Positions 6,230 through 47,826 are shown, counted from the first letter of the whole stretch. The stretch is 62,992 nt of DNA, filler included, from Hausera hauseri (GCA_046269625.1; 9 parts of 9 records of this genome joined end to end with filler, not necessarily neighbours in it); one strand, 5' to 3'. Program-made: numbers and translations. Notes: generated by a model from the letters alone, not told the origin.

Positions 6230-6329
6230 NNNNNNNNNNNNNNNNNNNNNNNNNNNNNNNNNNNNNNNNNNNNTTAATTAATTAANNNNNNNNNNNNNNN
6301 NNNNNNNNNNNNNNNNNNNNNNNNNNNNN
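6230..6329. other. Artificial contig spacer N44-TTAATTAATTAA-N44 (also at 14774-14873, 23135-23234, 28152-28251, 34718-34817, 42893-42992, 47827-47926, 57592-57691)
   Basis: Eight identical 100-bp spacers whose 12-mer gives stops in all six frames. Confidence 0.99.
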
Positions 6330-10025: not shown

Positions 10026-10247
10026 ATGGGAAAACAGATAATCATGCGTAGCGGCGGACGAAATTCCATGGCAGATTCAACTGATATTCAATCATATTAT
10101 AATCTGATCGGCATTGTAAAGAGAAACTTGAAAATTAATGAGGAGTTTATTTTATTACATGCTGGAAGGCCGCTACGGACCGATGGAGAAGTGAAAAATC
10201 TAAAACACGGTTTAACAATTCACTTAATGTTACGGCTAAAGGGAGGA
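10026..10247 (+). CDS. Ubiquitin-like domain (74 aa, ends LRLKGG) at the head of BEL Gag
   Basis: FILLHAGRPL...TIHLMLRLKGG matches ubiquitin LIFAGKQL...TLHLVLRLRGG, and the length to the diGly is ubiquitin-like. Confidence 0.8.
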
Positions 10248-23234: not shown

Positions 23235-24182
23235 TTATGTCCTTCTTATTTAATTTTGTTTTAGCTTAAGCTATTTCTTTCAATGAAAGGTAGATACCTT
23301 TATAATTGATTTTAGACATTTCCTAATTACATTCATTAATCGTTCCGATAATTTTAAATCTCATCATTTCTTCAGGGTTTTCTGAATATACTACCGTTGC
23401 TACTTCTGTCATCTTTACTTCTTTAGCTCCTTCTTTATAGGTCGTGGTCTCTTTTCGGCTGTTCTTCCTATCGATTTATTGAATTTTCTTTATTTTAGCA
23501 ACGTCAAATGGCATCTATTCAAGGGTACTTCCCAAGTCATCTTAGATTCTCCAGTATCACATTCCCCATTTTCGTATTCACACTCACTCATTGTTGTCAT
23601 GAGTTTAGTTTGTGAGTCAAATAATTTTTCATATTCCTTCAATTGAACTTGGTAGTCTACGATGGCTACTGTTCTAGGTGCAGTGGTACCTCCAACATCG
23701 TAATCTACTCCTTTATAGCTGCCATCCTTTGTTTTATCTATTCTTCCAGCTCTGAAGATTGGAGTATATTTTATTTTATTTTGTACTGCTGGTATCTATG
23801 TATTTTGTATTGTTATGACTCTTATTTTAAACGCGTCTTGACAATCCGCACGTGATATTATTATCGTTTCGAAAGGCGTTGTTTGTTCAATAATAGCGGA
23901 ATTCCCAGAATATTATGCACAATTGAATAGGAAAAATGATTTCTTTACATAACATTCTCTGATTTTAGCCATGATAAATTCTGACTCCTGGTAGACCCAA
24001 TAACTATGGCCGTTAGTTGTTATTAACTGTTCTGGATCAGCTTCCGGGCATTTTTCCAGATCCACCAGGGAGTACTTTTGTCCTTCTTTAGGCTTCAAAC
24101 AATCATAAGCCACTATGCCCGTTGCCTTAGGCATGCAAATGGATGTTATTAATAACAATTGTAATATCTCCATAAATGACAT
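23235..24182 (-). pseudogene. Chuvirus-like (class III) envelope glycoprotein, N-terminal half
   Basis: Signal peptide MEILQLLLITSICMPKATG, then IVAYDC.......SL.D...C...VYQ......IRECYV......NC. Read-through continues ISRADC, DGSYKGVDY, CEYENGECDTG..MTW.....C, a Cys pattern like chuviral G. Confidence 0.75.
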
Positions 24183-24378
24183 TCCGCCTAGGCCGTTTTA
24201 TAGCACTAGGTGAAGTTGTGATTAATCTTTCATGCGACCCTCCTCCGGGTCTTATCCTACCATTCATTAAACTTGGTACTCATCCACCTCTGCATTGTAC
24301 CCAACTCTCCAAAGTATCTCGTAATATCTTAACTGTTACTTTTATGTTTCGTTCAATTTCATCCAAATTTTGTGTTTG

Positions 24379-25711
24379 TTAGTTAATCACGATTACTTTA
24401 TATAGCAGATAAGCGACGGCTGTTACGACTTTTTCTCTAGTGATTCCTGTGGCAAACATTTTTTCTAATATGTCTTGTTCGTGTAGCTCATTAATTCTCT
24501 CTTCATTAATATTCTCGTAGAACTGTCTGATAACTCTTAACATGCCATTACGCAGCGTCTGGAACAGTTCATCGGGGATAGTAATTTGCATATCAAATAA
24601 TGTAAATGATGTATGCAACTTTGCTAGTAACGTTCTTAACAAGAGTTTTATGTCTATTGATTCTGGCGTTGTATCTGTTCCTGCCAGTAATAAACGCAGT
24701 ACTATTTCCTCATTCCTGTCTCTTTTACTTCGTATATCACTTATTTTAGTCCCTTTTGGCTGTCCTCTTCTTTTAGTTTCTGTTTGTACCGTAACATCCT
24801 GCGTATCACCGGTAGGTTGCTCTTCTGCTTCCGGTGGTTGTAGTTCCCTCATTATATTGTCTATTGTTTCCTCCGTTCTTGCGTCAGGGTGTACCTCTGT
24901 TATCCTAATTGGGCTGTATTCTCTCACTTCTACAACCAATTCGTAATAATGTATCGTAACCATATAACGTTCTTCCATAAAAACGTAGTCCGTATACCTT
25001 CTCTTTGTAGAACGGTTTTACTTTTTCGATCTTTTCCCTCAACGTTAGTATATCATCCGCTTCATTCATTCGGATGACTCTCATATCTTGATTTCTCTCT
25101 TTTAACGTTATTCTTACTGATTCGTTTCTTCCCGTCTCGTCTTCAGCTACCTTGGCCAGTATCGTCCGTGCTATTTCTCGTATTGAACTGGTATCGTGGG
25201 CGAATAGTTGTAATTGGAATAGAATTTCGTTTATCTTATCTACAGATACTATACTATCTATTAGTTTTAATATTATACTTGTTGCTTGGTTTACGTCAAC
25301 TATATTCTCAGAATCAATAGCAATAACTGCTTGAATACTGTCATTTTCAGCATCTAAGTCTACCTCTATATCGTGCATTACCTGTTCAATCACGGTTTCA
25401 TCGAATATCTTTGTAGGTTGTACTGCCTTTTCACTTTCTTTTGATGCCAATTCGCCTTGCTTACTTCTTCGTCCTCTTTCCTTTTGTTCCGCATCGCTTT
25501 TATCCACAAAAGTTTCTCTAAATTCTACTTCTTCTATTATCGTTTTTTTACATTTCTTTCTTCCTTGACGAGGTTTTCCTCCTTTTAACTTCTCTTCCGT
25601 TACATAAGCACTGTTTTCTCTCAATCTTTTCTGTTGGACTCCATAATCCTTTAATTCCATATCCAACTGCGTTCTAATATGTTGAGATAATATATCATTA
25701 ACACGATTCAC
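24379..25711 (-). pseudogene. Helical, charged linker region between gag and glycoprotein (ORFs 24905-25711 and 24379-24978)
   Basis: Two long overlapping co-oriented ORFs, probably one frameshifted reading frame. No domain recognised. Confidence 0.55.
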
Positions 25712-25797
25712 ACTTTCTTTCTTTTTATCTTCCTTCTTTATTTCATATTCGTTATCCTCAGTCTCATATTCCTTATCCCATAATTCATCCGAGATAG

Positions 25798-26782
25798 CTA
25801 ATGTGTAATCTTTTTTTGTTTATTGCCGTTAGACTTTGCCGAACCTTTTTTTCTTGACCTACATGCCTTTGCTATGTGGCCATATTTGTTACAGTTAAAG
25901 CATTTTAACCTCCCTTCCGAATTTATATTAGGTAGCGCCCTTCCGTCCTTTGTTGAACCATTTTTCTTATATGATTTTTCTCCATACTTCTTTAATTTAA
26001 ACCTCACCTTCTTTTCTACATCTTTTTCAGCCTCTGTGGCTGACGTCTGTGAGGGACTTCGGTTTCCATCGCATCGTTGATACTTCTGTGTACTATTGTT
26101 CCTTCGTCTATCATAATTATTATTATCGTTTCTTGACTTTGTCCACCAATATAATTCGGCGTCTCGTTCAGCTTTTCGTGCTTTCCTTATTGCTTCTTGA
26201 AATGTAGGCGTGTCAGATTGTAGAATTGTACTTCTTAACTTTCCTTCCAACCCATATTGGAATTGAGCCAACAGTGCATTACTTCTTATTACTGCATCAG
26301 GATAGGCCCTTGCGGCTCACTTTTCCAGTGCACAGACAAAATCCTGGACTGTCTCATTCTTTCGTTGCCTCCTTCGTATAAATTCTTCTATCCTCCCTTT
26401 CCAAAGAGATCAACGAGGAACTTTTGAGGTAACTTACTTTGACAGTTTTCCAATCCTTTTTGTCTTCTTCTGGCATCTGGAAATAAATCGTTAATGCAGT
26501 TCCTTTAAGATGGAGAGGTAACCTCTCCATTCTTTGTTGGTCATTCCATCCGGAACTTTTTGGATACACCTCATATTCCATAATAAAATCTTGTACATCT
26601 TCCTTTCCTGAAAATTTCTTCATGGGTAAGGTGAAGTCAGCTTTAGACTGTATCACCTGTTCTACGTTATGGTCGTTTCGAGCCATTTTGTTTTCTTCTT
26701 CTTCACTTAGATTATTCAAAAATTCCAAACCAAATGGTACATTATCGTTCGTTCTAAATGGTTTGCCTTTACCGGTCGTCAT
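25798..26782 (-). pseudogene. Gypsy-type Gag with CCHC knuckle, frameshifted
   Basis: KFSGKEDVQDFI..YE......GW.......LPLHLKGTA, QFQYGL...LR, and CFNCNKYGHIAKAC. Confidence 0.9.
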
Positions 26783-26834
26783 TTTGCTGCTTCTAGGTTC
26801 CTTAACTTATCTAAAGGTTTCTTTATGCGAGAGG

Positions 26835-26852
26835 TCCCTGGTGACGGCACCA
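26835..26852 (-). promoter_or_regulatory. Primer-binding site, tRNA-His type
   Basis: Minus strand TGGTGCCGTCACCAGGGA, 3 nt after ...GAACA and 5' of gag. It resembles the tRNA-His complement TGGTGCCGTGACCAGG. Confidence 0.75.
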
Positions 26853-26855
26853 GAT

Positions 26856-27114
26856 TGTTCAATCACCATTAATTACTTCGGGAGTGACTTCAACTTAATT
26901 TAATTAATTGGTAGAACAATCGACGTACTTTCATCTATATGTTCTGGATAAGGATGACATGTAGTGTAACTCTGGGGATCTTACCAACTTATAATTAGGT
27001 GATGTGTGAGGGGGAAGGTAGAGACTGTTATACTTTATTTACTACGGTTTAATATCTTATAAATTTATTTAACTTTATTCTGGCTGTCGTCAGGAAGGGT
27101 TGACCTGGACGACA
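26856..27114 (-). repeat. Putative LTR (about 259 bp, TGT...ACA)
   Basis: Its end abuts the PBS. Its start (TGTCGTC...CCTGACGA...ATAAAGTTAAATAAAT) resembles the sequence following the PPT at 60439. Confidence 0.55.
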
Positions 27115-27639
27115 AATGATATCCGGATTACTTAGAATTTATTTCATTATTTATTTACTTATGGATAAAACTAGAACGATAACGTTTCTCTAATACAAAA
27201 ATGTATATATGCAATCCAAGATAATAAATAAGATATGAGTACCATCAAAATACGTTAACAATCATCAATTAACAAAATCCCATCAAATAAAATACTTACA
27301 CGAAGACATGATGATATCGATAAGTAACGAATTTTTCTTCTTATTATTTTACATGAAACACTACTACGTTGTATAGTAATTTGATTTATTACTCGTAATA
27401 ACAACTGCTATATCGTTCATAAAATTGTGGTTAGTTAAAATAACAGATGGCCAATACAAAAAAATAATCCACTACTTCACATATCAAAATAGTAGTTAAA
27501 ATGAAGTCGCATAAAAAATGTCATATGTGGTTTATTGTTTTCACAGCAATTTGAGATAGTAATTAAATAGAGTCACATGTGGTTTATTGCTGATTTATTC
27601 CACAGAATCGTCGGGGATTCGGAGAAATTGTCCCGAATT

Positions 27640-28151
27640 TGTTATTGGTCGAGTGATAGGGGCATGTGTATGAATTTATCTGTGGTTTTCGATTTATATC
27701 GGATGGATTCTGGTTCGTAAAGTTCATCATCTATGACGATTGTTTCATCCACCTGGAACTTTCGCTTTCTGCCTCATAAGGATGCTGTTGGTGCTGTTCG
27801 CACGCTATCAGAGGTCGTACTTCGTGTGATGAGTTCGTCATTCCATTTTAACTGTCGACAAATCGATTGATAGCATTTTACCAGCGCGGTACTAAGAAGA
27901 GGAAACGCCTTCGTATCATAGAATTTCCAAGCAAGTTCTTTATACTTACTTGCTGTTATTTAGTATTTACGGATCACCTCTTCGTGATATAATATATCGC
28001 GAACTCCGGCAATCCGCCAAATAGGGCACTTGAAATGATTGATTATCATTTTCATTACGTCGACTCCGATTACTATTCTATCTGTAATTACTTCTGCTAC
28101 TTTCCGGTGGAAGTTTATAGAATCGATTTGATTATTGATATTTACTTCTGC
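27640..28151 (-). pseudogene. C-terminal part of the DEDDh-like accessory ORF
   Basis: EVNINNQID...ITDRIVIGVDV...HF..PI..IAGVRDILYHEE aligns by eye with EADIIGQLD...LTGKMIIGMNV...HFS...I..ILGIKDLLYAQE in ORF 60939-62981. Confidence 0.7.
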
Positions 28152-28251
28152 NNNNNNNNNNNNNNNNNNNNNNNNNNNNNNNNNNNNNNNNNNNNTTAAT
28201 TAATTAANNNNNNNNNNNNNNNNNNNNNNNNNNNNNNNNNNNNNNNNNNNN

Positions 28252-28720
28252 CTGTTTTGATTCAACCCGCTTTTACGAATTTCATATACATATTCTAACG
28301 TAGTTTTGTCTTCCCACCACTGGGCCTTAATTTTTGGTATGTATGAGGCAATTAATGATAATGCTAATATTATCTGCATGAAAAATTTCTATGTTATTCT
28401 CTTATCCTGATTTTTCTGGGGTTCTTATTATTGCAGCGTAAATTGTAACGTTTATTTGGTTTTATTTCACTTTTAACAACTGTTTATACTGATACAACTT
28501 CTTCTTTTCCGATTTTGTTGATATAGACTAATTGGCGTGGTTCTAGTCTATATCTAGCCCTTGCCCGGTAGGAGTAAATTTTAATTACGTACCTTTCTTG
28601 GCTACTGGATAGTGTACATAAACCCAATTTCCTTTTTCCAAATCATGAGGTTTTGCTTTCTTACCTTATTACTTTTTGAATTGTTCTTGATATTCAAGTG
28701 ATAATGTTTTCTCAATCTTT
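28252..28720 (-). pseudogene. Integrase C-terminus followed by a signal-peptide-bearing ORF start
   Basis: Nucleotide similarity to 21700-21930. From 28379 it reads MQIILALSLIASYIPKIKAQWWED, homologous to SLIAPYVPRVKTQW. Confidence 0.7.
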
Positions 28721-28729
28721 CACAGTAGT

Positions 28730-29225
28730 TGCAATAGATCAGAAAGATTGGGATGAATTCTTAGAAGGTACTCAGTTTGCAATTAACATGACACAACATT
28801 CGGGCACTGGATTCACACAATTTTTATGATGTATGGAAGAGAAGCAATATTACTGAAGGATTTAGGAATGACACTATGTACAATAAATCCTGAAGACTTA
28901 GAGTAAAACTTCGTTGAAGTAATATAGTCGATATTGCAGAAGTGTTGAGAGATTGCAAACGAATTATCTCAAGAATACCAAGAACAGTTTAAAAAGCAGT
29001 ATGACAAGAAAGACAAACCGCATGATTTAGGAAAGGGAAATTGGGTTTACTTACAATGTCCAGTCGCCAAGAAAGCACGTCATTGAAACTTACCTGTACT
29101 GGGAGAGGATAGTACAAAATTATCAGTACCACACCAACTACAGTGTATATAAACAAAGATGGTAAAGAAGAAGTTGTGTCAGTGCAGAGAGTTGTCGAAA
29201 CGAAAATAAGGCCGAATATTCAAAT
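28730..29225 (+). pseudogene. Integrase C-terminal fragment, same family, opposite orientation
   Basis: KDWDEFLEGTQFAINMTQH..TGFT and EYQEQFKKQYDKK.KPHDL. Confidence 0.8.
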
Positions 29226-29230
29226 ATTTA

Positions 29231-30028
29231 TTAGAAACATCTAGCATCAAACCATCCACTAGGCGTAGCATCGTAAACTGCTTCTGGAGGTCCTCCTGTA
29301 ATCCATTCCGAATAGCAGTTTAAGCTTTTGTACACAACCATGGGGAGTAAGAAGGTACCGGTTGCATTACCACAAGACATTATACTAATACATGTTTTAT
29401 AATGTTGGATTTTACGTTCCACTATGTTAAGCCCATGTCGATACAAAATCTTTTAGGTCATCACAGACATTAGTTTGATCGAAGTTATATATGTTTTCAG
29501 CTGGAACAGCACTTAATGTCTCCTTCGGTTCATCAAAAAATAAGCATACACTTTCACGTGATAATTCTTATCTTGCTGGCTTCACATTACCATTGATTCT
29601 TTGAGTTAAGTTGGATCGCTTCATGAAACACATTGGCCAGTCAATTCCAAATAAATTATTTTTGAATCGTGAATCAGTAATGTCTAATTTATCAAAGTAA
29701 GATTTTATTATTAATCGTACATCTGTCATCAAATGGAACCTTCGATTGAAACAAACAGTTAACAGCTTTTGTAAGATGTGTTTAATTGTTCACTCAACTT
29801 TATTTGACCTCCAGTCTTTAAAGTGTGTAATCCATCCACTTTGTTGTAAAGAGTTCCATTTGGGATATTATAACATTTACTAACTTTTAAAATACTTATT
29901 TGTTTAGAATTCACCTTTGCAACAGCTAATTGCAGATTTTCTTCTATATAATTCGTTGTATATTCTCTTCTGCCTGTCGTCCTTTTATAATTCCTCATTT
30001 TCGCAGTAGCTACAATACCAAATACCAA
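29231..30028 (-). mobile_element. pogo-like (HTH_psq / DDE_1) transposase pseudogene
   Basis: MRNYKRTT.R..Y.EENLQLAV..V....SI.K....YNIP..TL, then IYNFDQTN, and ISIMSCGNATG..L.PMVVYK...W..GGP..A.Y..TPSGWFD. Confidence 0.85.
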
Positions 30029-30079
30029 ATCAAATCAAACGGTATCAAATATAAACGTATTTTCATGGAATACGTGCAC

Positions 30080-32482
30080 TAAGGCCTGCCGAACCGTACG
30101 TTTTTTCAAACCCGGTTTTCCGTTGCTGAAATTATTGAAAACCGGGTACCCGGTTCCGACCCGGTTCTGAGAAAAGCTGAAAAAAGGAAAATTTTTTAAA
30201 TAAATATTTAATTTATTTTTCAAACAAAAAAATACAAAGAACAGTTATCAATTATTTATTTTCCGATTTAAAGTGTGATCTCAAAAAGGATAACATATCC
30301 AGTGTGTCATCGTTCAAGGATGATCTTATTTTTGTAACAATACGTCCACACCCAGAGAAAACTCGTTCTGACTGTACACTTGCCGGTTTTATTGATTTTA
30401 AATTATTGTAACATCTTTCGAGGTTTGCCCCTCGGCTGCCTTCGACCTCAAAAATTGAAATTTCCTTTTTGATTATGTTTGTAATACTTTTGGATGTTCG
30501 GTTTTTAGCAATAATTTTACAATTGTTGTCCTTTTCTATGGCATCGTCTAGTCTTTCTCGTAAGGTCATGTTACGGTTGTCTTCGTGAAGGACTTCGTCT
30601 TGCGATTCAGAATCAGACAAGTTGTTGTTATCGGACAATGTTAATAGCTTAATTACCATAGATGTAATAGCTGCCTTGGGTAAACATTCAAATTTTAGTA
30701 ATGGATCTAAATCGGCATATTCTTGGTTTTGTTTGTGCAAAAATTGCAACAAACTTGATGCGTTTGTTCGTCGCTCGTTTATTCGTCTCGCAAGCGATTT
30801 CTTTAATCGAATAGCAAATTCATTACTACCCAAATTATTGAACATGAATGAAATTGTTGTATCAGCAGAAAGTAATGTCGCATCGTGACGACATAACGCA
30901 TCGACACCTAATTTCACAGGTTCAAGTGTCGTTGCCAAATTGTGAATTTTACAAAATTCGTCTTCTTCAAATGACCAGTTTGACTTCAGATCAATTAAAG
31001 CTTTGAGCGTGCAGCTTTTAAGTTCATTAAATCGTTGTAACATTAAGTAGAGACTATTCCAACGTGTCTTTACGTCAATTTTCAAGTGAATTTCTTTTCC
31101 AAACTCTTCTTTTACATATTTTTGTAGCAGATCATTTTTAGTGGGTGATTTTCGGAATAATTTTACTACAGACCTGACCTTTTCGATCAATGAGTGGAAT
31201 TCAGGCACCAGTTCCGGCTCAACCGCAATATTTTCAACTAGAAGTCTATCGTCCGACTCAGAATTATCGTCAGATTCATCGCATGAGTCAGAATTATTGT
31301 CACTAACATCAATTTGTTCATTGGGTAAAGATATTGGCTTTTTGTACAACACATCGGTAACTGCCAGATGAACTGCATGGGCGAAGCAAAGTTGTTGTTC
31401 GCAAGAAAGTAATTTTCCAACTTTTTGCATCACTGAGGCACCGTCAGTTGTGACACATATAACGTCTTCATGCAAATTGATTCCAACAATTTCCAATCTC
31501 TCCTCTAGAAGTTTGATGCAACTTTCTGCTGGCAGTGATCCTTGTATTCGGATCAGACCCAAATTCCAAAATTCACCTTTAATGTGCACGTTAACGTTCA
31601 AATAGCGACGGTTTCTAATGGATGTCCACTCGTCGAACGTAAGACTAAATCGTTTGCCTTGAGACTTCAAAGATTGTAATTCAACCTTGTACTGTTGCCG
31701 GATTTTTCTACCATAATTCATAACAATGTTTCGAATTGTATTGGCTGACTTTGGTACATCAAATTGTCGTGCTAACAGCGATTTGCGCATCTCGGAAGAT
31801 GTAATGAAAACACTGAACGGCAAACCATCAGCTGCAGTCATACGGGCCAATACAGCTTCCATTGAGTTGTCATGTGCAATGAAATAGTTTGTGATGGATG
31901 ATTTTGATGCGGAACGCTTTTGTGATGGTGTTTCATCTGCTGTACTTTCAGAAGCAAGTCTCTTTACTGGATTTGAAAGGACAGAATGAACTGATTTCAG
32001 ATGCTTATGTAAGCTACCTGTTGATCCGCCAGATGTCTTCAACACTTTTCCACATATCTTGCACTGGGCAGATTGTCCAGATGTTTCACGTAGAAAATGC
32101 TCCCACACTGGGGTTTTATCAATGACACTTTTCTTCATCGCTTCGAAATTCGGCATTGGGGTTATTTTATTTCTGTTAAATGTAAATCTAAATTTTGTTT
32201 ACACGAAACGATCAATGAGCAAATCAATTTCAATTAGTCATTTTTCTAAATACCATGTTGCTATGTTTGATATTATCTACACGTTTCTTACAGTGGAAAA
32301 GAAAAAAAGCATAGATTTACAATGAAAAAGTTTTAGACAATAAAATTTCAAATACAATTGTACAATTTTTTTCGAAACCGTTACCCGGTTCTGAGATCTA
32401 GTCGGAACCGGGTGAACGGTTCAAGGAATATTACCGGGTACCCAGGTAACCGGATACCAGGGAACCGGGTCTGCATGCCTTA
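30080..32482 (-). mobile_element. Full-length hAT DNA transposon
   Basis: Imperfect 17-bp TIRs (TAAGGCCTGCCGAACCG and reverse complement TAAGGCATGCAGACCCG), ACCGG/CCGGT/GGTACC subterminal repeats at both ends, and an uninterrupted transposase. Confidence 0.9.
30252..32156 (-). CDS. hAT transposase with BED zinc finger, 634 aa, intact
   Basis: VWEHF...C..C...L.KHL...H (BED), FSLTFDEWTS, TTDGA, CFAH..HL, DVKTRWNS, and ASVQSERVFS (catalytic E and dimerisation domain). Confidence 0.96.
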   Translation of the reverse strand: MPNFEAMKKSVIDKTPVWEHFLRETSGQSAQCKICGKVLKTSGGSTGSLHKHLKSVHSVLSNPVKRLASESTADETPSQKRSASKSSITNYFIAHDNSMEAVLARMTAADGLPFSVFITSSEMRKSLLARQFDVPKSANTIRNIVMNYGRKIRQQYKVELQSLKSQGKRFSLTFDEWTSIRNRRYLNVNVHIKGEFWNLGLIRIQGSLPAESCIKLLEERLEIVGINLHEDVICVTTDGASVMQKVGKLLSCEQQLCFAHAVHLAVTDVLYKKPISLPNEQIDVSDNNSDSCDESDDNSESDDRLLVENIAVEPELVPEFHSLIEKVRSVVKLFRKSPTKNDLLQKYVKEEFGKEIHLKIDVKTRWNSLYLMLQRFNELKSCTLKALIDLKSNWSFEEDEFCKIHNLATTLEPVKLGVDALCRHDATLLSADTTISFMFNNLGSNEFAIRLKKSLARRINERRTNASSLLQFLHKQNQEYADLDPLLKFECLPKAAITSMVIKLLTLSDNNNLSDSESQDEVLHEDNRNMTLRERLDDAIEKDNNCKIIAKNRTSKSITNIIKKEISIFEVEGSRGANLERCYNNLKSIKPASVQSERVFSGCGRIVTKIRSSLNDDTLDMLSFLRSHFKSENK

Positions 32483-33748
32483 GTTAGACAATTTTAAAAA
32501 ACGCCACGGCATCACGTTTAAGCCGATCCAGAGCGAAGCTGGAGCGGTAGATTCATAATCTCTTCTTAGGTAGCAACAGCAGATTCTTCGGCCATTACTC
32601 ACACAGTTCTTCGCAGACAATGTCTTCAATCTGGACGAAACTGGACTCTTCTGGCAACTACTTTCGGACAAGACAATGGTTTTCAAGGGAAAGCAGTGTA
32701 CAGGAGGAAAAAAAAGTAAGCAAAGGATCACTCTTCTGGTTGGGGAAAACATGAGTAGCAGCAAAAAGTTTCCTCTTCTGGTGATTGGCGCTTCCAAAAG
32801 ACCTCGTGCCTTCAAGAACAAGGAGACCCCGGTCGAGTACAAGGAGAACTCAAAGACATGGATGACAGAGAAGTTTTCGAGGAGATATTGCGTGCGTGGG
32901 ACGGACGACTTGGCCAGCGGGAACGCAGAGTGCTGGTCTGTCTTGATAACTTTGCTGGCCACCTTCCAGAGCTCCAGATGAACAACATCCGACTAGTCTT
33001 CTTCCAACCCAACACGACAGGCAACTCGCAACCAATGGATCAAGAAATCATAGAGAACCACAAGCACCACTACAAGAAGCTCCTGCTATGCCGCCGACTT
33101 GAGGCCATGGATAAAGGAAAGGAGTTCAAGTTTACATTCCTCGACGCTTTACACGTCGTCCGGCGTGCTTGGTTGCAGGTCAGCAAGTCGACGATCAGGA
33201 ACTGTTTTGCTAAGGTCAAGTTTATTGAAGAGGAGATTCAAACTGAAGTACAGGATGCAGAGCTGCTCGATATCTGGGAAGCTCTGCCTGCTGAGGAAAA
33301 GATGTACGAGAACGAGGAGATCGACCTGTCTGACTTCCTCAAAGCTAATGAGCGCTTCGCGACTGGCGGGTCTTTTACACTGGAGGAGATTTCGGAGGAG
33401 ATGCTATGCGGTGAAGAGCTGGTGGAAAGCAAAGATGACGATATAACTGTTGAGGAGGAAGTCGTTTTATTCGAGGAAGCTCAGCGCGCTTGGAGCACCG
33501 TACGGAAGTTCATGCAACTGAAAAGTGAGAAGCCCGGTGTGATGTTAGCGTGCAATCAGTTGGATAACGAGATGCACGTGATCGGCCAAAAGAAAATGCG
33601 CCAGACGACGATTCTTGAGAGCTTTGGGCCGATAAGTAACTTGAGAAAATAAATCCGCTTTTACAAACCCTCGTTACTATGCCACTTTCTCTACTATGCC
33701 ACTATTGCTCGGTCCCGACAGGTGGCATAGTAACGAGATTTGACTGTA
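32483..33748 (+). mobile_element. Tigger/pogo element, 5'-truncated by the hAT end, frameshifted transposase, right TIR plus TA
   Basis: LDNFKKRHGI, FNLDETGLFW, GGKKSKQRIT, NSKTWMT / LDNFAGH, PNTT...QPMDQ. Terminal GTGGCATAGTAACGAGATTTGACTG-TA, with internal inverted copies at 33670-33705. Confidence 0.9.
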
Positions 33749-34169
33749 CTCACAAGAAACAGAACAGGGTTTTATGGGAAAAATTATTTTGCATACAAAA
33801 CTAAGATTATGTAATATGGAATTCTAAATGTTACATCATTTCGCACTTCTTCACTTTTCCTCGTATCATGCAGAGGAATTTTGAAAATTCATAAAATTTT
33901 TGTTTCTTTTTTCAACTAATATTTTACTAAATTGGATTTCCAGTTTGTCATTCATGTTATGTCAAAGTATAATGTATTCGCCTAATCATCAGCCACATGT
34001 TATGAGTCAAATATTAGACGGATATTTATTAGGTCTACAAAACATCAACAAAACACAATTAGTCAAACATTAACTGTCGAGAAAAAGGCTCAGATTTTGT
34101 TAATTCATAAAACAGAGAAACGCATTCGAAATCCTTAACTTCTTAAAACTAAAAATGAAAGAATGTTTC

Positions 34170-34345
34170 GAGATCGCTTACTGGAGGAATGGTCGAAAAT
34201 CGCATCGGAGTCTACAATGACTCGACGTTTGCAAGCTGTCTTGAATGATAATGGTGGTCACACAACTTACTAAATGCATGTATTTGTTTTTTTAATACAA
34301 TAAAAATATTTTCGTTTTGTCCGGATACTTATGACTGCTACTGCA
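34170..34345 (+). mobile_element. Tc1 3' fragment
   Basis: LLEEWSKI...MTRRLQAVL..NGGHTTY*, followed by a TIR-like end ...ATACTTATGACTGCTACTG. Confidence 0.65.
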
Positions 34346-34380
34346 TCTACGATTTATTAGAATAAATAGAAGAAACTTAC

Positions 34381-34479
34381 ACCTTGTTTTTTACCAGTAA
34401 AACACTTTCCTTTAATGAGCGCTTCCAATACGTCAGTAGAATTTCCACATACAGCATAGTGGATGGGTCTCCATCCATT
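34381..34479 (-). CDS. 99-bp exon encoding one ankyrin repeat (host gene)
   Basis: TTCAG| NGWRPIHYAVCGNSTDVLEALIKGKCFTGKKQG |GTAAGT: exactly 33 codons, phase 0-0, with a G-x-x-P-I-H-x-A motif. Confidence 0.85.
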
Positions 34480-36747: not shown

Positions 36748-36861
<114 letters not shown>

Positions 36862-36979
36862 TTACTACTCGTTGGTAGAATGACGTCTGGAAAATGCCTC
36901 ACTCTCTCTCTCAGCCCGGAGGGTTGTGGAGTCAATGAAGGAAGGTCAGATATTGTTAATTCAACACAAGAACTCCAGA

Positions 36980-38878
36980 TTGCTAATTCAAAAAGATGGA
37001 AGAAAATGTTTTGAGTATTTTTTCCCTCTTTTTCGAGGAATAGGATAAACTGCAAAATGTTGATCTACCAGATCGACTCCTACTGTCATATTGCTCTAAC
37101 TAATAACTAATTCTATTGACTGGTTTGTGTGAATTGTCGATAACAAACAAACGTCTCTTTTGTGTCTCCAACGCAATGCAATTATTTTATTTTTCCGGAA
37201 GGCAATTCTTTCCCTCCGGATTAAATTTTTGTGCAAAAGGATGGCGATAGACCTTTTTTATTTTTTTTAATTATCCCATATTTTTGGGACACTAAAAATT
37301 CTGCTAACTGAGAAGTAGGTTTCATTCAAATAAATTATTATTGACCACTTTTTGATTCACACAACGCAAAAATTTTTATGCCAAAACGCGCCATTTTTAT
37401 TGCTACATATTGCCGCCACCCTAAATTTTATTTACTTTTGAATTCCGGTGCGTATTTGCATCGTAGAGTTCATTATTTAATTGGCTATTGTACGCACTAG
37501 AAGTACTAACCTCATTTGAAAGTCACTGGTGGGGATGTCAATTAGTTTCATCACAAATAAATAAAATATACAAATTCATTGTTTATAAATAATCCAAAAA
37601 GGTGCAAAACACTTCACTAAATCACTTTTACCAAAAGAAGAAGTTTGTGCCGTAATTTGGAATCGTTCTGATGGTTGTTCGAAAGGTGGTGCAGATTGAA
37701 GCTCATGCCAGTCCGTCGGATTTATTTGATTTGCAGGTTGGGGTGGTGCATCGTCTGACTCCGTGCCAGTTGAATCTCCCAATATTTCAATGTCGTCATC
37801 TTCTGTTTCGTAGTCACTGCTTTCAATTTCAGTTTCTATCATATGAAAAATACCGTTGTGAACTCGACAAAATTTAAACGTCAATTTGTTTGTGTCATCT
37901 GAAAAACAGAATATACGGCTTGCGGCCATCGGCGTGTAGCACTTTTTTTTAATAAAACCGTAGCATAAAATCAGCCACCCTTGTCAATACCACCCTTATC
38001 CGAAGGATAATTTCCGAACGGTTTTTCAAGTCATTTTCGTCGGTAACATCTTGCTTGTGAAATGTGGACAATAAATAGACAATTTTAGATGGTTTTGATT
38101 TATGCCATCCCTTCAGCAAATTCCTTCGGTATTTCTCTTCTGTTTCCGTTCATTGTACCAACAAGAGTAATATCCTGATCCAAAATATAGTTGCATTCAT
38201 TTCATAACAACATCATGCGCCAATCTTCTTTCAGGCCTGTCTTCTTTTTCAACATACGGAATGAAAAATAACACACAAACCGTTTTTGAATCGCATATTG
38301 CGCAAAATTTAATGCTGCACCGATATTTTCTTGAAAAAACTGATCATCTGTGTTTACAAAGCCGTGAGGAAAGTAACATTTTTGACAGTTGTTCATAGCT
38401 TGCTCCCACACATCACGAATAGCGCAAAATTTGTCATCCTGTTTTCTTCTTGCAGGTGAACATTTATCATAGAATCGCAAATATTGTTCAATGCTCTGAA
38501 ATCTAGTTCGACCTATGGTATCTTGGCCTCTTGCATGCATCAAACCATTATACGCTTTACGTTCATCAACTGTTAGGCTGAAATATTCATCATTTTGAAC
38601 TCCAGATTCTGCTACAGTAAACTGGAGGTTCTGGAGAGGTTCTTATAATCGAATGGCTCAAGAAATACGTCTTCAACATCCTGCGATTCTTGCCAGAATA
38701 AAACGTTTGGGACCACCTTTCTCCCGAACTATATTGTGCATTGGAAATTGATTTTTCTCTTGCGTTGAAGGACAGAAAGTTACTAAACTTCGGATTGTCA
38801 TATTTCGATACGCTAACGCTACAACAATGAAACCATTTAACAGCGGTCAATTGACTGGCATGTTAGTTCCAGGGTTAA
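36980..38878 (-). mobile_element. Decayed or rearranged piggyBac element(s)
   Basis: RTRFQSI..YLRF.D....R...DKF.AIRDVWE....NC..CY.P and RFGIKIFALCES. The minus-strand TTAA-CCCT terminus is at 38878-38871. Confidence 0.78.
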
Positions 38879-39361
38879 GCGGATACACACTCAATCTACT
38901 GTTTATCCATTGAATTCCGTGTGTGACAGAAGGGTCATTATTTTTCCACTTATCGTTTAAAGTCAATAAACGAACCCAAACCTTCGTCTAAAATGTAATG
39001 CCAAGACCATCATATTGACTATTCTGCACTTTACCGTATATTCCAATAAATTGTGGAGAGCATTTAATGTGAACAAAAATATCTGAAATTTTATTGAACT
39101 CTGACTATGGCAATTAGTACTACGACTTGAGGTAAAACTCAAACGACTTGCTCTATTGTCTCCGAAGACAAAATCATTAACCTGTTTACCGAATCAATGC
39201 ATAAATTACATATAATTATTTATTTTCTCTTCCTGATTGCTTTTGACGGCACATATATTCGACTTCCTTTACAGTTCTATGGGAAATAAATGTTTGTTTT
39301 TTGGAGCATTATTTTCTGTTTAAATAATAATCGATTTGTACTTGTAATAATAATAATAATG

Positions 39362-40115
39362 TACAGGGTTCGGCCGAAGTTTTATCGCGTTTTTTGCACA
39401 AATTTCCCCGCTCTTAAAATTAGCAGATTTTTATATGAAACATGTTTCTAATGCGGTTTTCCGTCCTCTTTCGAACAGTATATAACATGTATTGTTAATT
39501 GTTAGCAATACGAGTCTGCTCATTTACAAGCGGGACAGTCGAAGGCTGCCATATCGAGAAGGTTCAAAATCAGCATAAGGATTGTTTAACGACTTTCAAA
39601 GCAGTTGAAGGAGGCCAGAAAATCACGAAGACCTCGAACCGTGAACACTGTTCGGATGTGGAAAACTATCAAACAGCGAATCGATCGTGATGACGAAAGA
39701 AGCTTGAATCAAAAAAGAATAATTCCTTAGTGATGCGTCGAAAGAAAATCGACTTCAGAAATGCAATCGTCGCCTTCAATATTTCAAGACGGTACGTTTT
39801 GAGGATATCATGTGGTCTGATGAAAAAATTTTTACACTCAAAGTGGCTCACACCGGTCCAGAAGAACACGTTAAAGCGAAAAATTCGTACAAAGTGGTTC
39901 TCGAGAAAGTTGTGATCCCTTGGAAGAGAAAAACCTTTCGATGATTTTTCAACAGGATTTGGCGCTTCCCATGGTATAAAATCGACAATGGCTCTGATGC
40001 GACAAAAATTGCCCTCCAATTTCACGAAAGAAGATTGGCCTAGCAATTTGCCAGACCTCAACCTATTGGATTTTTCGATACGGGGCTGCTTCGAGGAAAG
40101 TCCGAGGTGCAAGGA
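39362..40115 (+). mobile_element. Tc1/mariner (maT-like) remnant
   Basis: TA-CAGGG start, WSDEKIF, QQD, and WPSNLPDLNLLDFSI.G across frames. Confidence 0.7.
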
Positions 40116-42992
40116 AATTACTAATTAATAACAATAATAATAATGTATCTACATGAATTGTTTAAATAAAACTAGAAAAAATTTTCAGTAATGAAGGAAA
40201 TGATTGTAGACAAAATGTATATCCCAGTCTCTATCACAGCGCATATATAATGTATCAGAACAGAGTCTGTTATTAGTTATTATGTCCGGTTGTTTTAATG
40301 ATATGCTCATGTCGATTTTATTATTCATCTAGGCAATTCTCACCTACATTATTTATACGAATATGTATAAAATTCGAGTGGTAAACAGAATCGTAAATTA
40401 TCTACCTTCCATATATGAAAAAAGTATGGATAATACATTTGCATCACTGCAGTTCATTGTGTAAATTGCCTTAGTAACGAACTGATACATGTTCGCTTCT
40501 CCAAATATTATTGTCTTATTTTCTGAACAAATGCTTGGGATTGTTTTTTGGATTTTCCGTGTTTAACTTTTTTCAATCTTTTTCTGGTTTTAGAATAGAA
40601 TTCATTTTTTCGTTCATTTCATTGTAACTGAGTTTTTCATATTGGTAAATTTTTCATGGTAACAATGATGCAGAAATGGGCAGGGCGAATATGATGCTTA
40701 TGATGGATAACGTAAATAATGAACAATAGTTAGGTTCAACGTTTTTTCCTTCATAAAATTCGATTTATTCGATTCAATTAAATGTTTGTAAATGTTATTA
40801 AAAATTTGCATTTCATGTCTATAAATGTCCCATAAAATAGACTGAGGGCAGAATATTTCAGACTGTCGAATGAAGTTCATTCCGAGTAAATTAGTTTTTT
40901 TTGCAGCCGAAATCAAGTTGAGTAGTGGAACACACTTCGTCTTTTGGTGTTCTCTTCAACACTCTCTTTGATGTAGTCATGTCTAAACGCTTTTTCGTTT
41001 CAAACTCGAATGTCAGAAACTACTCCGAACGGACGTCTCTTGGCATAGTATGGTTCAATTTGAAATATCTGGCACAATATGGGGTGGGTGTCATTAATGA
41101 TGAGTAATAAATTCAATAGACAAATTTCGAATGTTACAGCACTTTGACACCTATTCAATCATTCCGTTTCGAATATCCACAAGAATTCGTTTTTGGATAA
41201 TGCTCATTTAGCACGATTTATGTTAAAATAAAAATTATTCATCTAAAAGTCGAATGTATTTCTTCAAAAATGTGCTGACACATCTCAGGGCTAAACTCCT
41301 TGCACCATACTTTCTGAACAGCAACAGTGAGGTCAGCGTACCCAACACTTCGATGTTCCCTAACGCCAGCCAGGTCTTAACAGTTTTTACTTGATGGCAT
41401 GGTGCTTCTCTTCTTCTTCATGCTCTTCTATCTTCACAAAGGACAAAGCACAAGAGTTATTGGTATTTCACTCTATTCAAATCTCCAATAAATAATTTAG
41501 TTTAGTGATACGGCCGAAAAACTAATTACTTATGAGCTCACTTAAGAGAAACCTCGCCAAAAGGAAATCTTAGCACCAAAGCTTCTATTTAGTTATCCGT
41601 CACTGACAACAAAGTGTGGCAATCCACGGATAGTTCACCATTAGTTACTAACAATTTATTTAGTTATCAAAGATTTTAGAGCTCTTTTAAATGACAATTT
41701 AAGTATATAAAAATATATAGAATAGGTGTGACCCACTTGTTTGTTGTTTTTATGTCGACATCGAAGAGGTTCAAATCAAAACTTTATTCGCATATACAAA
41801 TTTTATTCTATAACGTGTCATGCGAGTGTAGTATCTTGTTTTAGTGCAATAAGCTTTTTGCGTGCGTATGATGAAACATACAGCATATATATATATATAT
41901 ATCAATAATCAGTAGAAAAAGTTTAATTAATTTCAGATGTCTCCAAACAATAGCCATTCCCATACAACCGCGCAACGAAAGGAGCTCAAAGAAAACAAGC
42001 AACAAACTGCTAATTTCAAAAAGCAATCGAGTCATTGCAATAAAAAGGAGAATCTAATTATCCCCAACACTTCCATGGCTTAATTCAGCCTGCTCGGATA
42101 TAAACTATTAATTTATTTTGTTATTTTTGTTCCAATTTTATTTTTGATGAGGTTGAGTCAGTAAGATAAACAGTAGAGTAACAATTTGATACAATGTTCT
42201 CGTTTGGCAATAACTATATAATCAAAAACGATGATAAATTATATCATTTGATAAGTTTGAGATTCAAAGGAAGTTTGGGTCCTCGTAACCCTAAACTTAT
42301 ACTTTTTACTTAATTCAGATATAGCCTAGAATTTTTCCTTCCTCTAAGGCTGTGAGTTTATTATTTGTTCTTAAAAGCAGCCTGTGGGGCCTGCTTATAG
42401 TTTCAATTATTCTTAGTGTGAATACTGTTCAGGAGGTACACTGACGGTTTTATTCCCTTTATTTTATTGGGATTTTAGTGATCGATTTCTTAATACCGGT
42501 TGAAAATCGGGACCTTTTCATCAATCTAATTAAACTTAAAATAAAACTTCTTAATTAATATTACACTACAATTAAAAATGAGGAAAAAGATAAAAGTTTA
42601 ATGAACATTAAAATGAGACCATAAGAATACCAAAAAAACAAGAATAAAATACCTTACGCGAAAACCTCGACATAATGGCGATTCTAAAAATTATTTTACT
42701 ATGTGCGTCCTTTACCCGAAAAGATCACTATATATATATACACATTCAGGGGTGGCAAGGAAATTACAGACAATTGAAAAATGATAAGAAAATGAATCGG
42801 ATAAATAAAAGTAATTATAAATCGTGCAAAATAAAATTCCGAAGTAAATCAAATAAATGAAGAATAATCGTCATAAATCGTGTACATATAATNNNNNNNN
42901 NNNNNNNNNNNNNNNNNNNNNNNNNNNNNNNNNNNNTTAATTAATTAANNNNNNNNNNNNNNNNNNNNNNNNNNNNNNNNNNNNNNNNNNNN

Positions 42993-44253
42993 ACAAGTAT
43001 TCAGCACAAATTATGAAAATTATTTTATATCAGAAAAGGAGATCATACAGGCAGATAACTTGCCAGTCAATAAAGTCCAATTAGTGAACATCGCTGATTA
43101 TATCGTCAATAGAGATGACTTCTTATTTTATCTCACCCACAAAACGATAGAAGAAGTGTATTCCGAAACAATACAAAATTTTTGTAAGGTAAATTTTGAG
43201 ACATTAAGGAATCGACTGGCTATCTATGCTTCAAACCCGGAAATGATAACAATAACATTACCATTCGGTGAAGGAATTCAGGGCAGAGTCTTAGGAGAAG
43301 TGTTGTTTACCTACAAATGTAAGAGAATAAAGTTACCATTAGTTACTGGTACCCCATGTTACTCAGAAATACCAGTTAAGTATAAAGATGAAACTCGGTG
43401 TGTTCAACCAATAACTAGAGTATTATTGGCACCACACACTATACCAACAAAAATTCAAAATTGTACAGCAATGAACAAGCCATTTATCAAATACGATAAT
43501 TAAGACTTGTAGGTTAGACTACCTGACAGAGACAGAGTAAAGGAAAAACCCAAGAAATTAACAATGACTAATCTTCGACATGCTATCGAAACGAACATGT
43601 TTACTGATGTATCAAAGTCAGCATTGTATGATAAAAAAGAAATCGACTCATTTGTAAAATTTTTGGCATATCCAGGACATCAAGAACAGGTGGTAAATAG
43701 AGGAATACATAGAGTAATTGATGATTCTGTTGGATAAGGAAAATGGAATCGACTGTGGACACCCAATACTTATACAAAAATAGTTTCCAGTTTATGGCAC
43801 AAAATGTGGGGTGGATTTCTAAAATTTGGACAAGTGGCCTTAGGATTTCTTGCCATTTATTTCATCATGCAAACTTTGAAAGTCTGTATCAATTCTGTAC
43901 TGAATGCCTATGAAATTTATAACCTGACTGTGTTATCATTGAACATAATCCGTTCTCTATTTTCCCCTCTAGGCAAATTTATTAAAGCATACCATGAGAA
44001 ACAATGGCGAGGGAAATTAGAAAAACATGTGGACTATAAGACGGACAAACCAATATTGAAAGATACCTCATCAAGTTCAGATGACAATTCCCCAGGAAAT
44101 TACTCAAAACCAGGGATGTCAAAGAAAAAGAAACGAGAATTAAAGGGTAATCGCAATATATCAGATGCACCATATGAAAGTAAAAAGTTACCAAATCTAC
44201 CTGACCTAAATGATCCATCTGCAAAAAAGAGAAGATTACGTACGGTTAGGTAA
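42993..44253 (+). pseudogene. Chuvirus-like class III glycoprotein, C-terminal half with TM anchor and basic tail
   Basis: VY......FC......L.N.L.I...NP......GEG......GEV...YKC.........CYSEIPV.Y......QPITRVL, then WGGFLKFGQVALGFLAIYFI...LKV.IN..LNAY.IY. Confidence 0.8.
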
Positions 44254-44689
44254 AATTCCTAAATATTCACAAGAGGAAATATTACACTCCATTATTACTC
44301 AGAGTATGGAAAGAAACCGAATATCTTTTCCAACGTCTTCCAAATTGGGTGCAATACCACCTATACCCTATTATCGAATAAAGACAATAAAACCAACGGA
44401 TGACCTCAACCCTGACCAAGCAAATGATAAAAAGTCACATTATCTGATTTCCACGGTAGGGCCCAGTGATACACATCAAAGCATAAAACAACTCATCAGT
44501 TGCTATCTAGACTTAACAACATACAAACAGCAACCAAAAGACCCGGAAAACGATACGCAATCATTAGACAGTCTAACGATTATATTATCTAATGGAACCA
44601 AAAATGTCTGTGCCGCCAGTTATACTCTGATGGAACTACACAGCCGATCATAATGACGTACTAACCTTTCTCGAATTGATAATAGATAA

Positions 44690-47600
44690 TTGACGTCATA
44701 CGATGGTTCACTTTGGCACATTTGATATAAACGCAATGGCAGATACAAGAGCCAGTGTTTCATTAATTGAAAAACATGCGATACCAAACGAATATCAGTC
44801 ACAAATAAAATTGGCCTCTAAGGCATGTATGGGTACGACTTCAGCTTTTTAGCAGTGCTTAAAACCATATGGGTATTGGAAATGCGAACCTATAATTTGT
44901 GGTAAAATACTAAAAGTGACTTTATATGTGATGGCAACTCTAGATCCCCGATGTATTTTAGGAATGAATGTATTAAGAAATGTGGAAGGATTTCACATAA
45001 ACTTGCAGTCGAGATCGCTTTGTCCAAATAATGAGGATATTCCAGATAAATACGATAAAACGGACACTTGGATAGGACATTTAGAGAACATACCACCTAA
45101 TTCTAGGATGGTCATACACTCTAGAACAATGTTTCCAGATAATAAAATAATTGAATTTATACCACGGACATTTCAAAATTGATTGTTGTTACCACATTAC
45201 TGTGTCAATGTAAATGGAGGAATAATTCCCATTGAAGTCTTGAATTTATCCCTAAATACATCACAATATTTGCAAAAATGAAATGGGGTCAAGCGTATGA
45301 AACTCTCCGTCAACCTGAATATGACAATAAAATCGCAGTAATCACCATAGATAAGGAAAATGAAGCAGATGATATATTCAATGTTGTTCTTACTAAAGCA
45401 AAGAAAAAGCTATCTGTGGAATACCTTGAAAACTTTTCAGATCTCATCCGTGAATACACTGATATATTTGCCAAAAGTGAAACGAACATTGGACGAACTG
45501 ACTTAATCGAGTTCAAGTTAGCATTCATGATGGATCCTCAAACTGGAAAGGAAACAGACTTACTCCGACAGCCAATACCAAAATGGTACCCACCTCCAAA
45601 ATCACTTCAAAAGGAAATTGAGGAGCAAATACAAGCCATGCTAGAAAAAGGCATCATTGAACCAAGTCAATCGCCATGGCCATTGCCTATAGTTATGGCA
45701 AAGAAAGCCAATACTACGAAACACACCGTTTATGTGTAAATTATGTTACACTGAACAAACATCTCGCAAATCATGCTTACCCAATGCCACGAATACGAGA
45801 TATTATTGACGAGTTAAAAGGATGCAAGTACTTTACCACTTTGGATCTACAAAGTGGATTTGGGCAGATTCCAGTAGCCGAAAAGGATCGTTGGAAGACT
45901 GCATTCAAGACACATGCAGGCGTTTATCAATTCACTCCTATGCAATTCGGACTAAAAACAGCACCTACATTTTTCCAGGAATTTATTAGACTTGTCTTAA
46001 AAGGGGTACGTGGACTATCATGCATAGGCAATATTTTAATAGCGTCAAAAACATGGTCGGCACACTTAGTCGAATTGCGAGAAGCATTCGACCGAATCAG
46101 AATGGCTAAATTGAAACTAAACCCAAAAAATACGAATGGTGCAAAACTGAAGTCAGATATCTTGGATTTGTTGTCTCAAACCAAGGTATATCAACCAGTC
46201 CAGATTTAATATCCCAAATCCCGGAATATCCCCCACCAACCAACGTACCTGAGATGCGAGCTAGGTTAGGATTAGGAGGATTCTATGCTACGTTTATTGA
46301 AAACTTTGTGGAAATTAATCAACCTCAGTATAAAGTACTTAGAAAGGATCAAAAATGGGAATGGACGGAAGAAAACCCAAAGGCATTTAACGAAATAAAA
46401 AGACGCTTAGTATCAGCACCCATACTACGATATCCGGATTTTTCACTTCCATTGATCTTGAAAACCGAGGCTAGTATCAAAGCTATTAGCTACATTTTGG
46501 CACAACAGTGTCCAGAAGAGACAACTGAGCATTGTATTGCATATGGAGGACGACGTTTAAATAAGGCAGAAAGGAAATATTCTACCAAGGAATTAGAATT
46601 ATTAGCAATACGCGACGGATTGCGACATTATGAATATTACGTCTATGGTCATAAAGTTATAATATTTACGGACCATAAAGCACTGCTCTCTTTGCGTTCA
46701 AACAATAGACACGTATCAAGTCGACTCCAAATATGAAAGTTAGAGCTTCTGAATTATGATATTGAATATCGATATCAACCAGGAAAGGATAATGGAGACG
46801 CAAATTCAATCACTAGATTACCTTACGAAAATATAGTTGCTGCAGTTTATAAACCACAAGACAGAGAAGAATATAAACAATTAAATGAGAAAATTATTAA
46901 TGATATGTTACAGGAACAGAGACAAATACAAGTTCAAAATATTGAAACTTTACAAAATCAAGATCCATTTATAGTCCAAGTCAAACACTTAATAAATGGT
47001 CATATGGACGATCAAGTATAAAGTCACACTCAGAAATTTTACGAATAATATAAGGAACAATTAGACATTAAAAATGGAATACTAAAACTTAAAGTTGGTG
47101 AAAGAAAGCTAATCATTGTACTCAATTCAGAAATCAAAACAGTTATGCTTCAAGAACATGATTCACACCTGGCGAGACATCCGTCGTTAAACAAGACTTT
47201 GAAACGCATCGTTACTAAATATTATTGGCCGCAAATGAACAAATATATTGAAGGGTGGGTACGTTCTTGCAAAATGTGTGCTACTAGGGACATTAGAGGA
47301 TTTCGTGTAAAATCCCTTTTGGGAAGCCTTCCAGAAGCACGACAACCTATGGAAGTTTGTTCGATGGACATTTCGGGACCGTTTCCAGTATCTGAATCGG
47401 GATACAAATACATTTTGTCACTTGTTGATTACTATTCTAAATATGTTGTTCTAATACCTTTGAAAAATATGACCAGTCATACAGTAGCCAAAGCATTCTT
47501 TTACGATGTTGTAGCCGTATTAGGCAGACATATAAAGTTATTGACTGACCGCGCACCATATTTTATTAGTGAATTCTTCGACAAATTATCAAAGATATTC

Positions 47601-47826
47601 CAATGTAAACATCTATTGACAATATCCTACCATCCGCAATGTAATGTTATGGTCGAACGAATGAATCGGACCATTCAAGGTATCTTATCAACAAAGGTTT
47701 CACATGACCAAAAGGACTGGCACCTACATCTTAAAACAACGGTCTTTGCAATTAATACTACGCCTACGAAAGGTACTAACCATTCGCCATTTGAACTGAT
47801 GTTTGGCCGCCTACCACTTCTACCAT
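44690..47826 (+). pseudogene. Gypsy Pol: protease, RT, RNase H, integrase
   Basis: ADTRASVSLI and ILGMNVL (PR). GIIEPSQSPW, FTTLDLQSGF.QI, FGLKTAP, with YxDD decayed to CIGN (RT). TEAS, YST.ELELLAI, FTDHKAL (RH). H....H...C..C, DISGP, TDR, YHPQCN.MVER (IN). Confidence 0.95.

Follow-up and report, generated by a model that had tools for sequence, protein, structure and literature searches.

We examined a 62,992-nucleotide stretch of DNA from Hausera hauseri (GCA_046269625.1), hereafter the window, which comprises nine unrelated contigs with blocks of N or spacer between them. Two of these, contig 4 (23235-28151) and contig 7 (42993-47826), carry pieces of gypsy-like long terminal repeat (LTR) retroelements in which a viral class III glycoprotein (G) appears to lie between gag and pol: gag is followed by the N-terminal part of G on contig 4, and the C-terminal part of G is followed by pol on contig 7. 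The reading strand is minus on contig 4 and plus on contig 7, and the GC content is 0.359 for both. The features, in reading order with strand and expect value (E), are as follows.

26853..28151 (−), contig 4: region upstream of the primer-binding site (PBS), at the 5′ LTR position; a candidate LTR by position only, with no second copy in the window
26835..26852 (−): PBS, tRNA-His-like; 11 of the first 12 nucleotides match
25801..26806 (−): gag, a capsid-like region and one CCHC knuckle, in two frames (zf-CCHC, E 2.1e-5)
24923..25333 (−): conserved helical domain, then ubiquitin-like domain (PF00240, E 0.067)
24283..24552 (−): Bcl-2-like domain (BH1/BH2 region) with in-frame stops (PF00452, E 9.9e-5, under the curated cut-off)
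24111..24179 (−): internal signal-sequence-like stretch (hydropathy 1.66-1.68)
23235..24110 (−): class III (Monjiviricetes/chuvirus-like) glycoprotein, N-terminal part, family 1 (PF24664 positions 3-226)
42994..44070 (+), contig 7: class III glycoprotein, C-terminal part, family 2, with a transmembrane segment (TM) near 43813-43902 (PF24664 positions 275-627)
44071..44650 (+): cytosolic tail, then a coding-derived linker leading from G to the protease; a 147-codon stop-free frame, no Pfam match
44694..44990 (+): aspartic protease (PR), motif altered (RVP, E 0.002-0.009)
45080..45344 (+): spacer between PR and reverse transcriptase (RT), in the place of the dUTPase-like domain of the planarian element Burro; aligns with the spacer of the relative P0012 (E 6e-7)
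45661..46206 (+): RT, catalytic YxDD motif not intact (RVT_1, E 8.7e-17)
46362..46730 (+): RNase H (RH; RT_RNaseH_2, E 4.1e-30)
47127..47826 (+): integrase (IN), zinc-binding and core parts, cut by the contig end (Integrase_H2C2, E 1.2e-16; rve, E 3e-11)

The initial annotation had read contig 4 as LTR, PBS, gag with a CCHC knuckle, a linker, a signal peptide and the N-terminal half of G, with no pol in between. We recovered the PBS, gag, a signal-like stretch and the N-terminal part of G in that order, and profile scans of the approximately 1.6 kb that follow gag gave no PR, RT, RH or IN match. The PBS, compared with the 3′ end of tRNA-His(GUG) tabulated in PMC13524379 Supplementary file 1, lies about 2.7 kb from the signal sequence. 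Relatives (designated P) were drawn from a HMMER (phmmer) search with the C-terminal half of G from contig 7 against 1.84 billion representative proteins; the gag of contig 4 matches the gag of P0020, P0027, P0022 and P0014, as well as an independent metagenome contig, L001 (E 1e-24). Metaviridae-type gag and tRNA PBS features are thus present, on contig 4 only, and the gag relative P0027 matches Ty3_capsid. The LTR itself was not supported, as only one end of it is present and a repeat search of the window found no second copy; the longest stop-free frame in 26853..28151 is no longer than in shuffled sequences (1087/2000). Upstream of the PBS there is a 169-codon frame with two stops (27645-28151, minus strand), which had no meaningful Pfam or PDB match.

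Both G pieces matched the chuvirus-like glycoprotein family PF24664. On contig 4 the match (E 2.5e-20 with stops read as X) covers the first 40% of the glycoprotein, which is 23-38% identical to its relatives, and a hydrophobic stretch precedes the AYDC start of G; a similar stretch was found before [AG][YF]DC in all 12 relatives examined. On contig 7 the match comes in three pieces (E 2.4e-20, 0.082 and 1.1e-14), phmmer matched polyproteins at E 1e-51, and there is a single hydrophobic peak at amino acids (aa) 274-303. The initial annotation had proposed a structure-prediction check on G, and for the C-terminal half the outcome agreed with a class III fusogen: an AF2 model (AlphaFold; pLDDT 78, alignment of 103 rows) gave 31 Foldseek matches at E≤0.001 in BFVD, to chu-like G (E 5e-14 to 1e-8) and to G of other negative-strand viruses, while the matches listed from the PDB were herpes glycoprotein B (gB), with a best E of 4e-3. 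A PDB sequence search with G gave no meaningful match, and neither G piece showed an R-x-[KR]-R furin motif. The arrangement of the gB-type errantiviruses, a class III ectodomain between a signal-like stretch and a TM, with env before pol, was seen here.

Downstream of G, contig 7 had been read as C-terminal half, TM, tail and then protease, RT, RH and IN with no non-coding gap, and this reading held: the frames of the G tail, the 147-codon linker and PR overlap one another, so that no non-coding gap separates them. A frame as long as 147 codons was reached in only 2/2000 dinucleotide-resampled sequences, which argues that the linker is coding-derived, though it is out of a single frame in the contig 7 copy. 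The distance from G to PR is about 311 residues in contig 7 and 147-390 in six relatives, as measured with a pattern that missed the motifs in P0013, P0027 and P0161. The PR-RT spacer had no Pfam match, and its dUTPase label is by position and eye. The order PR-RT-RH-IN is that of Ty3/gypsy (Metaviridae), and the identity of the window pol to 15 database proteins does not exceed 44%. BEL/Pao membership was rejected, as DUF1759 and Peptidase_A17 are absent from contigs 4 and 7; both were detected on contig 2, so these markers are visible to the scan. PF24664, the pol domain matches and Foldseek thereby bore out the claims that pol is of Ty3/gypsy type, that the fusogen is chuvirus-like and class III, and that the order is gag-env-pol.

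The same order recurs among the relatives of G. The search with the C-terminal half returned 498 matches at E≤0.001, ten of them at E≤1e-30, and we scanned for domains in 21 of 150 listed matches, picked mainly for length or high rank. A protease follows G in the same frame in 10/21, and four of those ten (P0012, P0016, P0027 and P0032) read G-PR-RT-RH-IN, as does P0161 (4844 aa); neither a protease after G nor an integrase-side domain before it was detected at E≤0.001 in 9/21. Among the ten best matches, a protease lies downstream of G in seven and, at E 0.002, in an eighth; another stops shortly after G, and the tenth, a 203-aa fragment, was left out of the scan. A gag marker (E≤0.001) precedes G in two of the 21, P0014 and P0022, and P0027 holds Ty3_capsid (E 0.02), zf-CCHC (E 0.003), G, PR, RT, RH and IN in one frame of 2146 aa. 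L001 is colinear with contig 4, reading gag, helical domain, ubiquitin-like domain, Bcl-2-like domain, signal sequence and G. The suggestion that such elements encode a single polyprotein is therefore supported by the single frames of relatives such as P0027 and P0161, and not by the window copies.

Several of these polyproteins carry further features. In P0012, P0016 and P0161 the polyprotein extends beyond IN, where hydropathy marks another signal-like stretch followed by an ectodomain and a TM, and a second surface protein at their C-terminus is possible. P0161, P0014, P0016, P0011 and P0022 have several aspartic-protease-like domains per polyprotein, with seven gag-asp_proteas stretches in P0161 together with ankyrin and C2H2 matches. 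P0012 (HBK71150.1), an env-pol polyprotein of metazoan type, is filed in NCBI as a protein of a Flavobacteriaceae metagenome-assembled genome and probably stems from a contaminant contig; a scan of prokaryote genomes with P0012 gave no match.

Where G is present at both the end of contig 4 and the start of contig 7, 28 residues align, of which 8 are identical. This indicates that the two contigs belong to different families and are not halves of one element; the initial annotation had allowed that the halves may be different copies. At least five frame changes were found in each contig, including changes inside gag, G, RT and RH, along with six in-frame stops in contig 4 and about ten in contig 7. 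Given these lesions and the loss of the RT catalytic motif, both copies are dead and cannot perform the functions proposed below now. One public run contains contig 7 (share of words 0.31) and may be the source sample. Its contigs align to contig 7 in 7344 cases over 30/30 bins, most being less than 95% alike (404 at ≥99%, 1056 at 95-99%, 2739 at 90-95% and 3145 below 90%), which is consistent with an old family of many diverged copies.

The initial annotation treated the region between gag and G on contig 4 as a linker. This does not stand, for the region holds the helical and ubiquitin-like module followed by the Bcl-2-like domain. The L001 counterpart of the former matches PF00240 at E 4.7e-5, and a profile built from three relatives scored the helical/ubiquitin-like frame of the window at 21.2 bits, against 7.8 for the best of 500 shuffles; a PDB sequence search listed no ubiquitin among 60 matches, only histone H4 and other chance rows. 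The Bcl-2-like piece also matches BOK (E 0.077), and the domain is shared by P0011 and P0017 in the same place before G. With a three-row profile, all 58 PDB matches at E<1 belong to the Bcl-2 family. The AlphaFold model of the piece is of low confidence (pLDDT 48), and its Foldseek rows are of the Bcl-2 family only, none being significant. Each line is weak but they are concordant, pointing to ubiquitin-like and Bcl-2-like domains as the content of this stretch.

Together, these observations very probably reflect two decayed Ty3/gypsy-type families with a class III, chuvirus/gB-like env between gag and pol, likely single-polyprotein elements of the Burro kind when they were active. In such an element translation would start in the cytosol, and the ribosome would be directed to the endoplasmic reticulum by the internal signal sequence. 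Signal peptidase would cut just ahead of the conserved xxAYDC start of G, the G ectodomain would pass into the lumen, and transfer would halt at the single TM, leaving the tail and PR-RT-RH-IN on the cytosolic side. Flavivirus and alphavirus structural polyproteins have a comparable membrane-threaded layout. Gag with the ubiquitin-like and Bcl-2-like domains would remain cytosolic, tethered by the cut signal stub, and Pol would be tethered by the TM of G until the element's protease freed both; we infer, as did the initial annotation, that G is released by signal peptidase and this protease. Capsid, fusogen and enzymes would in this way reach one membrane in equal amounts for budding, and the producing cell would be held back from apoptosis by the Bcl-2-like domain.

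In the window as in P0011, P0017 and L001, some 25-60 residues separate the end of the Bcl-2-like domain from the signal sequence. At this spacing one signal-peptidase cut would give both a mature fusogen and a membrane-anchored anti-apoptotic protein. We tentatively suggest that the env signal sequence might also serve a captured Bcl-2-like protein as its tail anchor, and that it might do so in compact lineages beyond the planarian Burro, perhaps in non-planarian hosts. Were this true, it would, with the conserved helical-ubiquitin module, make for a retroelement that couples budding to apoptosis control.

Several observations weigh against the interpretation of these families as gag-env-pol polyprotein elements. 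No window copy spans gag, G and pol, the pol of contig 4 and the gag of contig 7 being unseen, and none of the run pieces listed spans contig 7. Each junction, gag to G and G to PR, does lie within a single contig, as had been claimed, and this supports the order; neither is in one frame in the window copies, and in L001 there is one in-frame TGA between the Bcl-2-like domain and the signal sequence. Among the relatives scanned, integrase-side domains precede G in 2/21, the lower-ranking P0148 and P0083, and judging from their domain order gag-pol-env also exists with a PF24664-type G. The G-PR linker (44127-44612) has a summed depth of 76-155 in run contigs, compared with 2115-11046 for G and pol; this sum is not copy number, and the linker of contig 7 may be particular to a minority of copies, fast-changing or subfamily-specific. 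RT, RH and IN trees (16 unnamed rows in each) leave the window pol on long, unsupported branches, and the env-before-pol rows fall to one side in the RH tree only (72/59). Neither model, that of the C-terminal half of G nor that of the Bcl-2-like piece, had a Foldseek match at E≤0.001 in the PDB, and VIA-align wide gave coiled coils only (Z up to 6.4). The ubiquitin-like and Bcl-2-like matches are both under Pfam cut-offs.

Some of these points would suit an element that has the gag-env-pol order but makes env or pol by regulated recoding (frameshift or read-through) or by splicing. The frame changes at both junctions in the window copies and the single TGA of L001 just before the signal sequence are what this main rival leads one to look for, and LTR elements seldom make Gag and Pol in equal amounts, which also counts for it. 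However, frame changes and stops occur within gag, G, RT and RH as well, as in decay. In P0011 and P0017 the Bcl-2-like domain is in the same frame as G, and in the ten relatives noted above G runs into PR without a change of frame; P0011 has all three in one frame. We consider recoding or splicing unlikely overall, and favour the single polyprotein.

It is far less probable that G began as a chuvirus-like endogenous viral piece or a BEL/Pao env and came into ordinary gag-pol gypsy elements by insertion or recombination, whether through nesting or in a chimeric assembly. Fragments of Jingchuvirales G often adjoin gypsy fragments without capture, according to the available sections of PMC10084718, and the BEL/Pao remnants on contig 2 and the thin cover of the G-PR linker could be read the same way. 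Against this, the nearest relatives of G (23-38% identity) are retroelement polyproteins of the same order, and stand-alone glycoproteins of ~650 aa are about 18-27% identical. The two junctions were seen in two separate families, the linker is coding-derived, and the initial annotation's own check for a nested insertion came out in favour of its reading, with no LTR-like or target-site-duplication-like repeat flanking G, and no terminal repeats, found in the window. The gene order in the relatives' single frames and the colinearity of L001 make a nested insertion of G very unlikely, and this alternative is already largely refuted. That contigs 4 and 7 are two halves of one element or one family is scarcely credible: their G parts are complementary (profile positions 3-226 and beyond versus 275-627) and they share a GC of 0.359, but the 8/28 identity and the lack of any blastn match between the contigs refute it unless a contig end is misassembled.

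The initial annotation read the structure correctly, but the gene order, which it set apart from that of retroviruses and errantiviruses, is not new. Arkhipova and Yushenova reported in 2019 that planarian Burro/GYPSM1 carries env between gag and pol in the same frame (PMC6431247). The available sections of that paper give the order as gag with CCHC, a Ubi2/SUMO-like domain, a BCL2-like domain, env with matches to mononegavirus fusion glycoproteins, PR, a dUTPase-like domain and RT; they describe Burro as giant and gypsy-like, with an internal region of up to 25 kb and MATH, BIR and ankyrin cargo, and report decayed Burro fragments in Dugesia japonica (PMC6431247). By description alone, our elements can be likened to Burro in gag CCHC, ubiquitin/SUMO-like and BCL2-like domains, and a mononegavirus-like env before PR, then a spacer, RT, RH and IN. 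Two Burro traits are divided between the contigs or weakly matched: the ubiquitin-like then Bcl-2-like order between gag and env is seen on contig 4, through weak matches, and the placing of env between BCL2 and PR is seen as BCL2-G on contig 4 and G-PR on contig 7. The window has one CCHC knuckle where Burro has two or three, and unlike Burro it has a compact gag-to-env region and no MATH, BIR or ankyrin match in the parts present (contigs of <5 kb).

GAG-ENV-POL Ty3/gypsy errantiviruses of the gB type were reported from Nematoda, Bryozoa and Platyhelminthes by Chary and Hayashi in 2026 (PMC13524379), whose available sections list nine flatworm and ten bryozoan elements, with up to 215 copies, and 114 arthropod elements with a chuvirus-like G beside gypsy pol. 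In arthropods, the available part of PMC10084718 finds no clear gypsy capture of Jingchuvirales G. The window elements share with the HSV/gB-type 'ancient errantiviruses' (HSV for herpes simplex virus) a Ty3/gypsy pol, a class III env with signal peptide and TM, and env before pol. Whereas the GAG-ENV-POL errantiviruses are intact and often multicopy, the two window copies are dead. We place the window elements as divergent new members of this published GAG-ENV-POL gB-type Ty3/gypsy group. Reportedly, Sacco et al. in 2022 described non-canonical nematode endogenous retroviruses in which a Metavirus had captured an RNA-virus glycoprotein and the env/pol order was flipped. By description alone these elements have in common with ours the Metavirus backbone, the RNA-virus glycoprotein and the flipped order, and we know of no ubiquitin-like or Bcl-2-like cargo in them. 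Dezordi et al. are said to have described in 2020 the Anakin BEL/Pao elements with a Chuviridae glycoprotein. Anakin has the PF24664 glycoprotein family in common with the window elements but BEL/Pao gag and protease markers, which contigs 4 and 7 lack; in the BEL-like relative P0083, G comes after the integrase-side domain.

These contigs thus extend a group that is published but has received little study by two families, both divergent and dead, and they join two literatures, on Burro and on GAG-ENV-POL errantiviruses, which are unconnected in the available text of PMC13524379, where the words Burro, Bcl, polyprotein and in-frame do not occur. The literature searched held no bench test of an LTR-element polyprotein that threads capsid, class III fusogen and enzymes with apoptosis and ubiquitin cargo. 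The live question is a mechanistic one, namely the processing of the polyprotein and the possible anchoring of Bcl-2 in the membrane, and the intact natural relatives P0027, P0012, P0016 and P0161 are better material for it than the window.

Further searches extended the comparison. Among 1225 candidates of a word-index search there was no longer relative of G, and among 90 candidates no relative near the length of the Bcl-2-like piece. Viral contigs scanned with the RH frame and with G gave no match, and the ESM Atlas held no usable match for a 212-aa frame. A metagenome scan reduced 52 pattern matches to one locus.

The remaining contigs of the window carry other sequences. On contig 9 (60942-62990, minus strand), an open frame of 683 aa extends beyond the contig start and has a hydrophobic, TM-like stretch around aa 78-100; it is weakly like ISG20-type DEDDh exonucleases at aa 409-482 (E 0.04-0.08) and weakly matches the pre-env stretch of P0038 (E 0.03-0.08), and may be part of a related large element. 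The BEL/Pao remnants (DUF1759, Peptidase_A17) lie on contig 2 (9987-14311), where a ubiquitin-like piece (E 0.029) immediately precedes gag. An open 648-aa hAT transposase with a BED finger and DDE_1, DDE_Tnp_1_7 and Tc3-type transposase pieces were found on contig 5 (30255-33649) and at 38205-38642 and 16124-16477. Three frames on contig 1 (582-5688) are without a Pfam match, and by eye the frames there resemble what we take to be Polinton/adintovirus capsid and protease remnants. On contig 8 (47927-57591) an open frame of 3221 aa at 52% GC encodes a protein with internal repeats, for which Pfam gave no convincing match, and the start of contig 3 (14875-15135) holds a Proton_antipo_M fragment; both look bacterial, suggesting that the assembly is probably mixed.

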